Assembly: GCF_045105575.1 (NCBI RefSeq)
Contig: NZ_JBGCDQ010000028.1
Location: 1,744 to 65,743, forward strand
Reading direction: 5' to 3'
DNA: 64,000 bases
DNA from: Winogradskyella sp.
GTDB lineage: Bacteria; Bacteroidota; Bacteroidia; Flavobacteriales; Flavobacteriaceae
The notes beneath the pieces were generated by a model. It worked only from the letters and a program-made list of their open reading frames with translations. It was not told where the DNA came from and searched no databases. Within the stretch, counting starts at the first letter, position 1, and each line of letters opens with the position of its first letter. Below, in pieces: positions 51,986 to 55,977 of this stretch. Made by a program: the position numbers and the translations under genes.

Positions 51986-52028
51986 TAGTTTTATGAAACT
52001 AGCAACCGCATTTAACTACAGTGTCTAA

Positions 52029-52397
52029 TTAAAGATTCTGTAAGAGTAATAATAACCAACCTACCACCAAAAGCAATCCTCCAAGTGGAGTAACAGGGCC
52101 TAAAAATCCCAACTTTCTACCCTTAGCGTCAGAGAGTACCAATCCGTAAATACTAAACGAAAATAGTATAATCCCAATAGTAAAACACCAATAAGTGGCA
52201 GTGCTAACGAAATCAGAGTTAAAGCCTAAAACGAGTAAAACAATAGCGTGATACATCTGATATTTTACACCAACTTCAAAACTATGTAGTTGGTCTTTAG
52301 ACAATATTTTCTTTAAAGCATGTGCGCCAAAAGCACCAAATATTACGGATAGCATTCCAAATAAAGCAGCAGTAATAATTATAATTTGTTGTGTCAT
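52029..52397 (-). CDS. DUF423 (YgdD/TMEM256-like) membrane protein
   Basis: GAFGAHAL, YQMYHA, LFSFSIY, GPVTPLGG. Confidence 0.88.
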   Translation of the reverse strand: MTQQIIIITAALFGMLSVIFGAFGAHALKKILSKDQLHSFEVGVKYQMYHAIVLLVLGFNSDFVSTATYWCFTIGIILFSFSIYGLVLSDAKGRKLGFLGPVTPLGGLLLVVGWLLLLLQNL

Positions 52398-52422
52398 TGG
52401 TTATGGGTGTTAAAAGCTATTT

Positions 52423-53208
52423 TTATTTATAGACTACAGGAATAATTTCCCCTTTAGCCAGTCTGTATTTATCAATAGCATCTTCTGAAAGTTGAGCCGT
52501 ATAATCTACTTCTTCAACCCTAAAACCAATAGAACGCAGCTTATCAAAATAATCACGACCATAAATACGAACATGATCGTATTGTCCGAAAATTTTAGCA
52601 CGTTCAGCTTTATCAGTGATTGAATCATCTTCAAACGTTTCAGCACGATTTAAATCTTGTGGAATTTGAAAAACACCATAACTACCAGGTTTCATAACTC
52701 TGTATAATTCTTGCATCGCTTTAGTGTCGTCAGGTATATGTTCTAAAACATGATTGCATAAAATCACATCATAGCTATTATCGTCAAAAGGAAGATCGCA
52801 AATATCTGCTTTAACATCTGCAATAGGCGAGAGCAGATCTGTCGTAGTATAATCGATATTTTTAAGTTTTCTAAAGCGTTTTAAAAAACATTGCTCTGGC
52901 GCAAAATGAAGTACCCGAAGTGCTGAACTTGATTCAGGATCTCTTGTAAAAAAATCAGTTTCGTTTTTAAGATATAGCCATAATAAGCGATGACGCTCAA
53001 GGCTTAATGTAGAGGGTGAAAGCACATTTGGTCGTTGTTTGCCGTAACCATAAGGTAAAAAGGTTTTAAACCGCTTGCCATCTATTGGGTCTGTATAGGT
53101 ATTTCCTTTTAAGACGAATGTTAAAATAGGACGTGCTAGGTAGCTTAGCCTTATGAGTAGAGGTCTTGGGATGGTGTTTAGGATTAATTTAAAGAGTTTT
53201 TTTGACAC
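52423..53208 (-). CDS. Class I SAM-dependent methyltransferase
   Basis: SLERHRLLWLYL, VLHFAPE, CNHVLEHI, FGQYDHVR; GTG start. Confidence 0.82.
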   Translation of the reverse strand: MSKKLFKLILNTIPRPLLIRLSYLARPILTFVLKGNTYTDPIDGKRFKTFLPYGYGKQRPNVLSPSTLSLERHRLLWLYLKNETDFFTRDPESSSALRVLHFAPEQCFLKRFRKLKNIDYTTTDLLSPIADVKADICDLPFDDNSYDVILCNHVLEHIPDDTKAMQELYRVMKPGSYGVFQIPQDLNRAETFEDDSITDKAERAKIFGQYDHVRIYGRDYFDKLRSIGFRVEEVDYTAQLSEDAIDKYRLAKGEIIPVVYK

Positions 53209-53233
53209 GAATTACACGAATTTTCACAAATCG
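53197..53233. repeat. Left inverted repeat of the GxxExxY cassette
   Basis: TTTTTTTGACACGAATTACACGAATTTTCACAAATCG. Confidence 0.9.
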
Positions 53234-53611
53234 CTAAAGAACGATTCTTTTATATTTTAAACTATCTTCTCCAAAGTTAATGAGAAGTCCTAATTTTAAT
53301 TTTGAAACGGCTAAATAATTTAATGTTTGTTTAAGATGTGCTGAAACTAAGCAATCAATCGCCTTAATTTCTAGTACAATTTTATCCTCAACAATAAAAT
53401 CTGCTTTGTATTTATGCGGTAAAATATTTCCTTTATAGCTAATAGCGAATTTTGTCTCTCTGGAATACTTTATATCGTTATCAATAAATTCAATTTCTAA
53501 GGCATCTGCGTATACAACTTCATTAAACCCTTTTCCTAATTGGTTATGTACTTCCATACATATTCCAATTATTTTATAAGCTTCCTCTTTATAAATTAAA
53601 TTTTGAGTCAT
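53234..53611 (-). CDS. GxxExxY protein (PD-(D/E)xK nuclease-like)
   Basis: GFNEVVY motif, YKADFIVEDKIVLEIKA, QTLNYL..SKLKLGLLINFG; start moved to MTQNL. Confidence 0.92.
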   Translation of the reverse strand: MTQNLIYKEEAYKIIGICMEVHNQLGKGFNEVVYADALEIEFIDNDIKYSRETKFAISYKGNILPHKYKADFIVEDKIVLEIKAIDCLVSAHLKQTLNYLAVSKLKLGLLINFGEDSLKYKRIVL

Positions 53612-53727
53612 TAATTCTTTCGATTTATTTGTTAAAGAAACGAACAAAATCATTAAATTTTTATCGAACTATTTGATTTAGATAGTTTTAAACTCCTTAT
53701 TCAAATCTAAGTAATTTTTCATCACTC

Positions 53728-53764
53728 CGATTAGTGAAAATTCGTGTAATTCGTGTCAAAAAAA
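53728..53764. repeat. Right inverted repeat of the GxxExxY cassette
   Basis: CGATTAGTGAAAATTCGTGTAATTCGTGTCAAAAAAA, the reverse complement of the left IR with one mismatch. Confidence 0.9.
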
Positions 53765-53766
53765 AA

Positions 53767-54585
53767 TTACAACACCAAAGGCTTCTGTCTATAAGCATCT
53801 TCCTCATCAGAAAGAATCCCAAGAGCCTCATGCACATACCCAAAAGTAGAAAGTATCTCAGGCTTCCCATCTACAATAGCAATATCATGCTCAAAATGTA
53901 CACTTGGTTTGCCGTCTTGGGTTACAATGGTCCAACCATCGCTTAGTTGTTTTACTTTATGTGTTCCTAAATTGATCATAGGTTCAATAGCAACCACCAT
54001 ACCTTCAATAAACTTTTTGCCGCGACCGCGTTTTCCGTAGTTGGGCATTTCAGGATCTTCATGCATTTTTCTGCCTAATCCATGACCAACCAATTCTCTC
54101 ACCACACCATAACCTTCGGCTTCACAAAATTGCTGAATCGCAAAACCAACGTCACCAACACGATTACCACGTTTTAATTCAGCAATACCAACATAAAGAG
54201 ATGCTTTGGTAATTCTAATTAATTTCTTAGTTTCTTCAGCAACGTTACCTATTTCAAAAGTATAGGCATGATCGCCATAAAAGCCATTCATAAAAGAGCC
54301 ACAATCTACAGAAACAATATCACCATCTTTTAATGGAATATCAGTAGGTAAACCATGGACAACAGCTTCGTTAACACTACATAATAAGGTAGACGGACAA
54401 TCGTAAAGTCCTTTAAAGCCAGGCAACGCACCATGATCTCTAATAAATTCTTCGGCAATGGCATCTAAATGATTGGTGGTAACACCTTCTTTTATTTCCT
54501 TAGCGAGCATGCCTAAAGTTTTGGATACAATAAGCGCACTTTGACGCATTAACTCAATTTCTTCTGCCGTTTTTACTATAATCAT
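53767..54585 (-). CDS. map: Methionine aminopeptidase type I
   Basis: SVNEAVVHG, SVDCG, GDHAYT, GHGLGRKMHEDP, AIEPM, HFEH. Confidence 0.96.
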   Translation of the reverse strand: MIIVKTAEEIELMRQSALIVSKTLGMLAKEIKEGVTTNHLDAIAEEFIRDHGALPGFKGLYDCPSTLLCSVNEAVVHGLPTDIPLKDGDIVSVDCGSFMNGFYGDHAYTFEIGNVAEETKKLIRITKASLYVGIAELKRGNRVGDVGFAIQQFCEAEGYGVVRELVGHGLGRKMHEDPEMPNYGKRGRGKKFIEGMVVAIEPMINLGTHKVKQLSDGWTIVTQDGKPSVHFEHDIAIVDGKPEILSTFGYVHEALGILSDEEDAYRQKPLVL

Positions 54586-54605
54586 GTCTTAAAATTGTTG
54601 AGCGT

Positions 54606-54613
54606 CAAAGATA
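54606..54613 (-). promoter_or_regulatory. -7 promoter box for map
   Basis: TATCTTTG on the minus strand. Confidence 0.55.
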
Positions 54614-54682
54614 GGTATAAATAATAATTTAATAATTCTTGAAAACATGATAAATAACAGTTTCTAAGCTAAGTATCTGTTA

Positions 54683-54690
54683 TAAATTTG
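54683..54690 (+). promoter_or_regulatory. -7 promoter box for the CoA-transferase gene
   Basis: TAAATTTG. Confidence 0.55.
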
Positions 54691-54711
54691 TAATCTAAAT
54701 GTGAATCAACC

Positions 54712-55977
54712 ATGTACAGAACCGTCACCGCAGAAGAAGCCTTAAAAGTTGTAAAATCTAATGATCGTATCTATATTCAAGCAGCTGCAGCTGCACCACA
54801 AACGCTTATAAAAGCATTGTCGGCAAGACATGAAGAATTACGAAATGTAGAAATATGTCAGCTCCATACCGAAGGTGAAGCTCCGTATGCTAATCCGGAT
54901 TTAAGAGATAGTTTTCATGTGAATTCCTTCTTTATTGGAAATAATGTAAGACATACCTTAAAAGCAGGAAACGGCTCTTACACACCTGTATTTTTGAGTG
55001 AAGTGCCAAGGCTATTTCAACAAGGTATCGTTAATTTAGATGTGGTGTTAATTCATGTTTCTGTGCCAGACAAGCATGGCTATTGCTCATTAGGAGTTTC
55101 TATTGAGGCAACTTTGGCGGCTATTGACAATGCGAAGATTGTAATTGCTCAGGTAAATCCACAAATGCCAAGAACGCATGGTGCAGGCATTATTCATAAT
55201 TCTGAAATCGATTACTTTGTAGAATCTGATGAAGCGCTCCCTACGCACCATATGGCAGAGCCTAATGCTATTGAAAATAAAATCGGTCGGTATGTCGCTG
55301 AATTAATTGAAGATCGCAGTACGTTGCAAATGGGGATTGGTTCTATTCCAAATGCTGTTTTAGCAAAATTGACCAATCATAAGGATTTGGGTTTGCATAC
55401 AGAAATGTTTTCAGATGGTGTTATTGATTTAATTTTAAGTGATGTGATTAATGGGAATTATAAAAAGATTAATCGCGGACGTGCACTCACTACTTTTCTA
55501 ATGGGATCTAAACGTTTGTATGATTATGTGGATGACAATCCTTTTGTGGAAATGCGTGCATCAAACTATACTAACAATGCCGCTTATATTAAGCAAAATC
55601 CAAAAATGGTAGCTATAAATTCTGCAATTGAAGTCGATTTAACTGGTCAGGTGTGTGCAGATTCAATAGGGTCTAGTATGTATTCTGGTGTTGGTGGACA
55701 AATGGACTTTATTAGAGGAGCCTCTCTAAGTCAAGGAGGTAAAGCGATCATAGCCTTACCATCTGTCACTAAAAAAGGAATCAGTAGAATTGTAGCTTCG
55801 TTAAAAACTGGCGCTGGAGTGGTAACCACAAGAGCTCATGTACATTATGTGGTTACTGAATATGGTGTGGCTAATTTATATGGAAAAACTATAAAGAATC
55901 GTGTGAAGGCTTTAGTAGATATTGCGCATCCTGATCACAGAGCAGAGCTTGAAAAATCGTATTTTAATAAGATCTAA
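54712..55977 (+). CDS. Acetyl-CoA hydrolase / 4-hydroxybutyrate CoA-transferase family
   Basis: LQMGIGSIPNA, HTEMFSD, INSAIEVDLTGQV, SGVGGQMDF.RGA, HPDHR. Confidence 0.92.
   Translation: MYRTVTAEEALKVVKSNDRIYIQAAAAAPQTLIKALSARHEELRNVEICQLHTEGEAPYANPDLRDSFHVNSFFIGNNVRHTLKAGNGSYTPVFLSEVPRLFQQGIVNLDVVLIHVSVPDKHGYCSLGVSIEATLAAIDNAKIVIAQVNPQMPRTHGAGIIHNSEIDYFVESDEALPTHHMAEPNAIENKIGRYVAELIEDRSTLQMGIGSIPNAVLAKLTNHKDLGLHTEMFSDGVIDLILSDVINGNYKKINRGRALTTFLMGSKRLYDYVDDNPFVEMRASNYTNNAAYIKQNPKMVAINSAIEVDLTGQVCADSIGSSMYSGVGGQMDFIRGASLSQGGKAIIALPSVTKKGISRIVASLKTGAGVVTTRAHVHYVVTEYGVANLYGKTIKNRVKALVDIAHPDHRAELEKSYFNKI

Follow-up and report, generated by a model that had tools for sequence, protein, structure and literature searches.

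A GxxExxY gene between inverted arrays of phased units at the map/methyltransferase junction of Winogradskyella

Our analysis of a 64,000-nucleotide (nt) stretch of DNA from a marine Winogradskyella, hereafter the window, revealed that the whole gap between map, the gene of a type I methionine aminopeptidase, and a methyltransferase gene is filled by a discrete block of about 570 bp, consisting of a gene of the GxxExxY family and of two inverted arms built from short phased units. Alignment of empty and filled junctions across the genus showed that gene and arms had been inserted as a block into a junction at which the two flanking genes ancestrally overlapped. We favor the reading that the block is a persistent, site-faithful cassette, and we infer a mechanism with REPIN/RAYT-, Ssn-, and homing-like logic, in which the nuclease encoded by the gene would recognize the units of the arms. 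Our confidence in this reading falls somewhat short of even.

Occupancy of the junction and structure of the cassette

We compared the map-methyltransferase region across 59 genomes of the genus, in which G000 denotes the Winogradskyella genome holding the window and the other G numbers denote its relatives. The first-pass annotation of the window had proposed a search for relatives with an empty junction, and 16 of the 59 genomes indeed had one; 10 genomes carried a cassette of type A, 16 a cassette of type B, and 17 other fillers. The 26 cassette carriers, decayed copies included, fell into three lineages, A1, A2, and B. At the empty junctions, the stop codon of map overlaps or nearly touches the ATG of the methyltransferase gene, which yields TAATG in a basal clade and TAAAATG, TAAGATG, TAACATG, or TAGAATG elsewhere, with only point changes in the spacer (the empty junction of the G004 type reads GTGCTTTAAAATGAAATCACTT). 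On this comparison, the empty junctions look ancestral and unlike excision scars.

The A1 proteins, found in G000, G013, G059, and G021, with a pseudogene in G010, are 79 to 100% identical to that of G000, while those of A2 (G042, G065, and G075, with a pseudogene in G066 and a remnant in G019) are about 60 to 64% identical to it. The type B protein shares only about 35% identity with the G000 protein, and its arms consist of four C(A/T/G)C-R-R-AG units at a spacing of 10 to 11 nt; decayed type B copies comprise a pseudogene in G018, half-deleted cassettes in G043 and G068, and a gene-less scar in G053. Without exception, the end of the cassette and the start codon of the methyltransferase gene lie no more than a few bases apart. 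No target-site duplication was found in the comparisons of empty and filled junctions, and the T-run and A-run that border the cassette are inverted and belong to the arms. Unrelated fillers at the same junction included a 257-amino-acid (aa) open reading frame (ORF) in about 13 genomes, a 107-aa cupin-like ORF that overlaps the map stop codon, an approximately 60-aa membrane ORF, and a 244-aa ORF. The map/methyltransferase junction is a general hotspot for small insertions.

At the locus in the window, map, the GxxExxY gene, and the methyltransferase gene all lie on the minus strand (Table 1), and the methyltransferase gene was found in 61 of the 61 genomes of the genus. A repeat search returned the two arms as 37-nt segments that are complementary at 36 of 37 positions (97%) and lie 494 nt apart. 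The 18-mer ACACGAATTACACGAATT occurs exactly in each arm and has no third match in the window even when 3 mismatches are allowed; by chance, 0.11 matches were expected, and two or more were seen in 0 of 100 shuffles. The best ungapped flank-to-flank inverted-repeat score at this locus was 34, whereas 400 random control ORFs of G000 had a median of 9 and reached at most 17; these ORFs served as the control because mismatched upstream/downstream pairs were unsuitable, as loci from different phyla share the unit. The near-perfect inverted repeats around a GxxExxY gene, already reported in the first-pass annotation, thereby held up to the repeat search, the shuffles, and the control ORFs. That annotation had also counted two tandem repeats in each arm; the tandem arrangement is real, but each arm holds three phased units of the type CAC-N-R-AT. 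On the plus strand, the 3′ arm reads T7-GA-CACGAATT-A-CACGAATT-TT-CACAAATC-G, and in the direction of the gene the cassette ends with TAG followed by the mirror image of the 5′ arm ending in GTGTC-A7. Runs of T and A cap the arms in orthologous cassettes and in gene-less copies as well. A search of positions 52000 to 55000 gave no Rfam match at E values up to 1.

The boundaries of the block are tight. The triplet CTA at 53234-53236, which is the TAG stop codon of the minus-strand GxxExxY ORF, directly adjoins the 3′ arm, and the A-run at 53758-53766 directly adjoins the TTA of the map stop codon (53767-53769). Since homologues begin at MTQNLIYK, the ATG at 53611 is the likely start of the GxxExxY protein, rather than that at 53653. 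The claim that the unit fills the gap between two genes was correct on the side of map but incomplete on the other, where the 3′ arm is partly coding: the only usable start codon of the methyltransferase gene is a GTG within the arm, and the ancestral ATG is missing in G000, G013, and G059. In these three genomes, the end of the cassette arm doubles as the first methyltransferase codons, GTG TCA AAA AAA. In the carriers G042, G075, and G066, the methyltransferase starts with TTG or GTG at or beside the arm.

Table 1. Features of the cassette and its flanks in the window
Feature	Position	Strand	Basis or remark
map, type I methionine aminopeptidase, flank upstream of the cassette	53767-54585	-	TIGR00500 3.8e-85; stop codon 53767-53769
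T9 run in gene direction (A-run on + strand), from map stop to first 5′-arm unit	53758-53766	-	sequence
5′ arm (IR-R of the first-pass annotation)	53728-53764	-	gene direction T7-GA-CACGAATT-A-CACGAATT-TT-CACTAATC-G
Units of 5′ arm	53748-53755, 53739-53746, 53729-53736	-	spacing 9 and 10 nt
Spacer from 5′ arm to start codon, 116 nt	53612-53727	-	length varies in orthologous cassettes (about 27-50 nt in relatives)
GxxExxY / PDDEXK_3 gene, 125 aa + TAG	53234-53611	-	PF13366 1.9e-37, TIGR04256 1.1e-41
Longer GxxExxY ORF, alternative upstream ATG at 53653	53234-53653	-	ORF table
3′ arm (IR-L of the first-pass annotation), starting 1 nt after TAG	53197-53233	-	sequence and repeat search
Units of 3′ arm	53206-53213, 53215-53222, 53225-53232	+	sequence
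Methyltransferase GTG start codon, supplied by outermost 3′-arm unit	53206-53208	-	ORF table, junction alignment
Class I S-adenosylmethionine (SAM)-dependent methyltransferase, flank downstream of the cassette	52423-53208	-	PF08241 4.1e-15

Gain, loss, and distribution of the cassettes

On the tree of the flanks, type A required 9 changes for 10 rows, which was no better than with shuffled labels, and at least 6 of these changes were forced by well-supported branches; type B was clustered. Sister genomes with unlike occupancy were G004 (empty) and G021 (A1), with a support of 100, and G005 (empty) and G042 (A2), with a support of 99. Within types, the divergence of the cassettes was close to that of their surroundings: third-position identity was 0.70 for A1 versus 0.61 and 0.56 for its flanks, and 0.62 for type B versus 0.60 and 0.56, with a Spearman coefficient of 0.73. 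Amino acid identity within types was 85 to 92%, and it amounted to 87 to 92% where third codon positions were only 49 to 70% identical. Because divergence within a type tracks that of the flanks, the cassettes are old and under purifying selection and are not recent hoppers.

The flanks of some carriers are mosaic. G021 and its sister G004 are 93% identical in distal map and 86% in distal methyltransferase sequence, whereas the nearest genomes to the first 150 nt of the G021 methyltransferase gene are the cassette-bearing G013 and G066. Similarly, the start region of the G042 methyltransferase gene has its nearest relatives not in its own basal clade, to which its sister G005 belongs, but among genomes of the main clade. 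Identity dips beside the junction in both pairs, although the 5′ part of the methyltransferase gene is variable in general. The mosaic flanks fit a cassette that was imported or exported along with short stretches of flank through recombination, without being conclusive.

A scan of representative genomes revealed type-A homologues at 50 to 91% identity, and type A fills the same map/methyltransferase junction in nine other genera or lineages of Flavobacteriaceae, namely, Hyunsoonleella, Polaribacter, Aquaticitalea, Mariniflexile, Tenacibaculum, Flagellimonas, and three uncultured lineages. In the cassette tree, A2 and Flagellimonas split from A1 and the eight other genera with a support of 100/99, whereas in the flank tree the A2 carriers G065 and G075 fall into a 100/99 clade with A1 carriers, including G000. 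A single clade of Winogradskyella cassettes was rejected by the approximately unbiased (AU) test (P = 0.016). The conflict between the two trees and the outcome of this test indicate that the cassette lineage, as far as these trees reach, is uncoupled from its immediate flanks and yet sits at the same junction. The timing of transfer between genera is unreadable, as third positions are saturated between genera (0.41 to 0.58) in cassette and flanks alike.

The design is not confined to this junction. When other GxxExxY genes were inspected for similar flanks, as the first-pass annotation had suggested, inverted arrays of tandem 8- to 11-nt units were found: of the 42 GxxExxY loci of the genus, 27 had an inverted-repeat score above the 95th percentile of the 400 control ORFs and 21 a score above the 99th (Mann-Whitney P = 4 × 10−20), the G000 type-A locus being the highest. 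The units differ by GxxExxY subtype (CACGAATT, CACAGAG, CACAAAG, CGCAAAG/CGCAGAG, CGCAGATT, and CACGAATA with an 8-nt period), and each subtype has its own junction in the genus. G000 itself holds a second GxxExxY cassette of another subtype outside the window (contig C52, 9405-9960, locus L002), with arms of 8-nt-period units GCCACGAATACACGAAT and their mirror image, and this cassette occupies the same site in G013 and G059. Type-A-like homologues with CAC-N-AAT(T) arms were found in Planctomycetota, Chloroflexota, Verrucomicrobiota, and Ignavibacteriota, the carriers at other sites being “Ca. Scalindua,” Caldilineaceae, Opitutales, Ignavibacteria, Thermodesulfobacteriota, and many Bacteroidota. 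Over long distances, then, gene and arms move jointly. Collectively, these comparisons showed that, in the sequences sampled, the type of unit follows the protein subfamily across phyla.

The protein, its arms, and related arrays

The cassette protein matched TIGR04256 with 141.9 bits (cutoff, 35) and PF13366 with 128.6 bits (cutoff, 22). It contains G28-x-x-E31-x-x-Y34 and a D71...E81-x-K83 core, and all six residues are invariant in 13 diverse copies of the genus. An AlphaFold (AF2) model (pLDDT, 82.6) gave as its best Foldseek match in the PDB the Cas4 protein SSO0001 (4ic1; probability 1.0, TM score 0.5), followed by an R2 endonuclease domain and lambda/alkaline exonucleases, none of them with an E value below 0.001. 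As predicted by this model, the fold is that of PD-(D/E)xK (restriction-endonuclease-like) enzymes, and the protein is a minimal Cas4/RecB-like nuclease. A sequence search of the PDB found no relative, and PADLOC found no defense-system match. PF13366 was the only profile matched by the cassette ORF; no other Pfam or NCBIfam profile, and no DDE, HUH, serine, or tyrosine recombinase, was found; the first-pass annotation had likewise seen no DDE, HUH, or tyrosine recombinase and no clear target duplication. The PF13366/TIGR04256 family comprises 13,206 clusters at 50% identity (E values up to 0.001), and about 12 of its representatives are proteins of 250 to 290 aa with two GxxExxY stretches, tandemly duplicated or fused. 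A search of 50,697 phage records gave no match, and the plasmid matches were 8 records, all nonmobilizable and most of several hundred kilobases to 1.6 Mb. The Pfam entry of the family is listed as “function unknown, multiple transfers” (PMC3424549), and the searchable literature rarely names the family and holds nothing on its genomic context.

The first question posed by the arms is whether they serve as DNA recognition units or as an RNA stem. If the cassette were an element of the intervening sequence (IVS) type acting at the RNA level only, the arms would form a double-stranded stem, RNase III would free the mRNA of the ORF and insulate the neighboring cistrons, and the protein would be unrelated to the arms. 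The predicted cassette RNA indeed has a long terminal stem that encloses the whole cassette (ΔG of −131 kcal/mol, z score of −4.8), and at 7 of 7 independent sites whose flanks share one direction, gene and operon are oriented alike (P = 0.008). An inverton reading was considered as well; the gene is co-directional with its upstream flank at all 42 loci bar one. There is also a precedent in the 23S rRNA IVS of Coxiella burnetii, which measures 428 nt, has a 28-bp terminal stem and an S23p ORF, and is excised by RNase III; its mobility has long been suspected, and the mechanism was never explained (PMC4990558). Like the IVSs of C. burnetii and Leptospira, the cassette measures about 0.4 to 0.6 kb, has complementary termini and a long stem, carries one small ORF, and occurs sporadically; it differs in that its host transcript is an mRNA operon, its position being the map/methyltransferase gap and not a 23S rRNA helix, and in that its ORF has a nuclease fold instead of S23p.

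The resemblance extends to another gene family. Genes for four-helix-bundle proteins (TIGR02436), the family of the proteins of 23S rRNA IVSs and of Avd of diversity-generating retroelements (PMC10053308), were found in 55 of 61 genomes, at a maximum of 16 copies per genome, and at operon junctions they too are enclosed by inverted arrays made of short tandem units. Their units are mostly heptamers, such as TTAGAYT/ARTCTAA and TTGGTTG/CAACCAA, and several genomes hold many such cassettes and no GxxExxY gene. In G000, four-helix-bundle loci lie at C38:11555-12050, C67:13530-14110, C75:24200-24493, and C32:32900-33370, one with (GGAAGAT)x10 upstream and another with (ACCACAA)x~24 downstream. At several loci of other Winogradskyella genomes (L097, L098, L101, L106, and others), the gene downstream of one four-helix-bundle cassette codes for an RluD-like pseudouridine synthase whose N terminus (MSKESKRSNKSN...) comes from the ARTCTAA array itself, and arrays can therefore become coding sequence of a neighbor.

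Variation in the arms speaks against pairing as their purpose. Among nine type-A cassettes, arm complementarity was 24.1/32 within a cassette and likewise 24.1/32 between cassettes (permutation P = 0.58), which gives no sign of selection for pairing. The CAC..AAT(T) positions were invariant in 18 of 18 arms, while mismatches fell on degenerate positions of the units and were not compensated; type B arms behaved alike as judged by eye. Because the arms pair no better within cassettes and the unit positions are invariant, selection acts on the motif of the unit, and these alignments suggest recognition of the units by a protein, with pairing as a consequence. Moreover, a stem as such would require no tandem units in phase and no match between unit type and protein subfamily across phyla, and it does not account for single arrays and gene-less hairpins at other loci. 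On balance, we consider an element acting solely through RNA unlikely. Read as promoters, the arrays would match the −7 motif of Bacteroidota only in the CACAAATT variant.

The type-A array pattern GACACNRATTNCACNRATT occurs in 18 of 61 genomes, compared with 0 to 1 for the reversed-pattern control. Counts outside the genomes' own cassette arms were 14 in G000, 23 in G013, and 18 in G059, and an intact type-A gene was accompanied by dispersed arrays in 7 of 8 genomes, whereas 9 of the 53 others had them (Fisher P = 1.8 × 10−4, with kinship ignored). Several of the single arrays in G000 lie 10 to 15 nt upstream of start codons in the orientation of the 3′ arm. In addition, as the first-pass annotation had anticipated when it proposed a search for arm pairs resembling miniature inverted-repeat transposable elements (MITEs), G013 and G059 carry compact gene-less hairpins (loci L242 to L247), which consist of a 5′ arm, a loop of 6 to 70 nt, and a 3′ arm. 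The matching sites are short in G000, G021, and G010; at the G059 site, the whole intergenic region differs (about 238 versus 7 to 36 nt), and no boundaries are readable. In G013, a gene of about 700 bp that encodes a LysE-like membrane protein lies between two gene-less hairpins. Two further structures were seen in G000: at C16:33100-33600, a structure of about 226 nt, present in tandem copies, alternates CACGGATT-type and CACAGAG-type arrays, all on one strand and with no gene between them, and at C67:3790-4400, a T-run, GACACGGATTTCACGGATTTTCACAGATT, and a short GC hairpin occur together in three direct copies, two of which lie 12 to 15 nt upstream of a minus-strand ORF start.

Such dispersal recalls the Ssn proteins, small GIY-YIG nucleases whose genes are flanked by a dispersed repeat that is cut as single-stranded DNA, with cognate repeats on both sides in 42% of homologues (Chenal et al. 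2025, PMC11893778). The two systems share a very small nuclease gene, a cognate repeat on both sides that is also dispersed in the genome, and repeat variants that follow nuclease variants across phyla. They differ in the enzyme (GIY-YIG cd10448 versus PD-(D/E)xK PF13366) and in the repeat, the NTS being one motif that forms a hairpin and recurs hundreds of times; furthermore, Ssn activity has been demonstrated, whereas that of GxxExxY is a prediction. The cassette might accordingly be understood as a repeat-nuclease partnership of the Ssn/NTS kind with a cellular role, not mobile by itself, in which the nuclease would act on the dispersed arrays, for instance on incoming or single-stranded DNA, the arms would be autoregulatory or incidental, and the patchy distribution would result from ordinary gene loss and from allelic replacement by way of the conserved flanks. 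Besides the precedent, the association of dispersed type-A arrays with an intact gene, the strong purifying selection, and the long residence at one junction favor this view, and the mosaic flanks fit plain homologous recombination. Against it stand the low number of arrays (0 to 23 per genome, with most carriers having 0 to 5), the frequent pseudogenes and remnants at the junction, and the lack of a PADLOC match; neither three very different lineages at one junction nor the joint movement of gene and arms across phyla would be expected of a simple host gene. We judge such a host function improbable.

Standing of the cassette among known systems

The cassette works like a mixture of several known systems and is a member of none. 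REPINs are hairpin doublets tied to a RAYT gene, which occurs in single copy and lies between REP sequences itself (Bertels and Rainey 2011, PMC3116915). As in that system, a short dispersed repeat flanks, in inverted orientation, an enzyme gene present in one copy, and residence is long, largely vertical, and under purifying selection. Gene-less inverted doublets with hairpin potential were seen in extragenic space of G013 and G059, whereas G000 has only singlets. The enzyme, however, is a PD-(D/E)xK nuclease (PF13366) of about 125 aa and not a Y1/HUH transposase of the IS200/IS605-like kind, the arms contain 2 to 4 phased units of 8 to 11 nt instead of a palindromic REP, copies number in the tens and not in the hundreds, and the gene-bearing unit is present or absent at one operon junction.

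Free-standing homing endonuclease genes are faithful to one site and pass through a cycle of empty, intact, and degenerate alleles. The cassette resembles them as a small nuclease gene between conserved genes that occupies the same locus across species and genera, with empty, intact, degenerate, and remnant states coexisting. The mosaicism by the insertion point may reflect coconversion, although the start of the methyltransferase gene varies in general. Homing genes are not known to have terminal inverted arrays or gene-less dispersed derivatives. Membership in each class fails because of the enzyme family for RAYT and Ssn, the location for the IVS, and the transposase, target duplication, and copy number for insertion sequences (ISs). 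No description of such a cassette was found in the searchable literature.

The comparison with ISs bears directly on the model of the first-pass annotation, in which the unit was selfish, IS-like, and moved or spread by a restriction-fold nuclease that recognizes 9-bp iterons. Such a unit would be a transposon that hops to many sites with this nuclease as its transposase. The unit does share with ISs and MITEs terminal inverted repeats with several phased putative binding sites, as at the ends of Mu or Tn7, as well as gene-less derivatives at other loci, and gene and arms occur at different sites in different phyla. That the block is discrete and has been gained and lost was likewise borne out by the empty junctions, the sisters of unlike occupancy, and the disagreement between cassette and flank trees. 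The IS-like behavior was not: each genome holds one gene-bearing copy per lineage (the two GxxExxY genes of G000 belong to different subtypes), and each lineage keeps to one junction in the genus, which for type A is also its place in nine other genera. The unit has no transposase of a known family, no target-site duplication, and no near-identical copy anywhere, the divergence equals that of the host, the gene is under purifying selection, and the family is missing from the phage records and rare among plasmids. The IS-like model is therefore largely refuted for recent time, and we regard it as very improbable. The barest alternative, that regulatory or chance repeats lie on either side of an ordinary accessory gene, can point to single arrays of this type that lie shortly before the start codons of other genes, but its probability is close to negligible in view of the inverted-repeat score, which is twice the control maximum, the recurrence of the design at most GxxExxY loci of the genus and across phyla, and the precise boundaries of empty and filled junctions.

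We therefore return to the persistent, site-faithful cassette, which we take as one member of a widespread class of GxxExxY cassettes, each set between the stop of one operon gene and the start of the next and oriented with transcription. In the mechanism that we propose, the nuclease, probably as a multimer, would read the units, which in either arm follow one another at intervals of about one helical turn. Such reading of units would keep gene and arms together and may occasionally seed gene-less copies, as in the REPIN/RAYT system. Among relatives, recombination within the conserved flanks would carry the cassette to the same junction, perhaps with cleavage as a stimulus, as happens in intronless homing, and such spread would explain both the single lineage per site and the mosaic flanks. 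The arms would close a long stem in the operon transcript, which may allow processing while the flanking genes stay expressed.

Several observations weigh against this proposal. The main argument is that the four-helix-bundle genes, which have no nuclease fold, share the packaging and are commoner; the packaging is therefore not nuclease specific, the inverted-array architecture does not need the GxxExxY nuclease, and the earlier suggestion that the nuclease explains the architecture is weakened. The link between protein and arms, and the reading or cutting of the units by the nuclease, are deduced from sequence comparisons; there is no target duplication and no defined cleavage site, and the covariation of subtype and unit could come from common descent alone. 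No recent movement was seen; cassettes are about as diverged as their flanks within a type, and the gains and losses must for this reason be old. The flank tree is a two-gene tree of map and methyltransferase, not a species tree, and the test of association between arrays and gene was not corrected for phylogeny. Finally, 10 type-A arrays occur in G008 and 7 in G041 although neither genome has a type-A gene, and all dispersed arrays in G000 are intergenic singlets, with no hairpin doublets among them.

A broader form of the proposal would take GxxExxY genes with phased arms as pan-prokaryotic, minimal, site-faithful elements, mobile or persistent, in which a Cas4-like PD-(D/E)xK nuclease of about 125 aa would be the only factor encoded by the element, reading the units of the arms, homing to one junction per lineage, and seeding gene-less hairpins, with the four-helix-bundle cassettes as a parallel class. 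We offer this generalization as a conjecture that is rather unlikely to hold in full. If the four-helix-bundle cassettes do form such a class, the old puzzle of the rRNA IVS would be linked to cassettes at operon junctions. The packaging that GxxExxY and four-helix-bundle genes have in common bears on the origin of rRNA IVSs.

What is new here relative to the known repeat-flanked small nuclease genes and ORF-bearing IVSs is a GxxExxY cassette at an operon junction. At this junction, a single culturable genus provides empty, intact, decayed, and replaced alleles side by side as a natural series, and for a large family the locus provides concrete substrates, namely, three phased CAC-N-R-AT units, paired arms, and an empty junction. 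As regards genome annotation, arms can supply the start codons and N-terminal residues of neighboring housekeeping genes. If the nuclease reads the arms, it would represent a third enzyme fold, after HUH in RAYT and GIY-YIG in Ssn, that is coupled to its own flanking repeats, and the cassettes could be a source of small sequence-specific nucleases.

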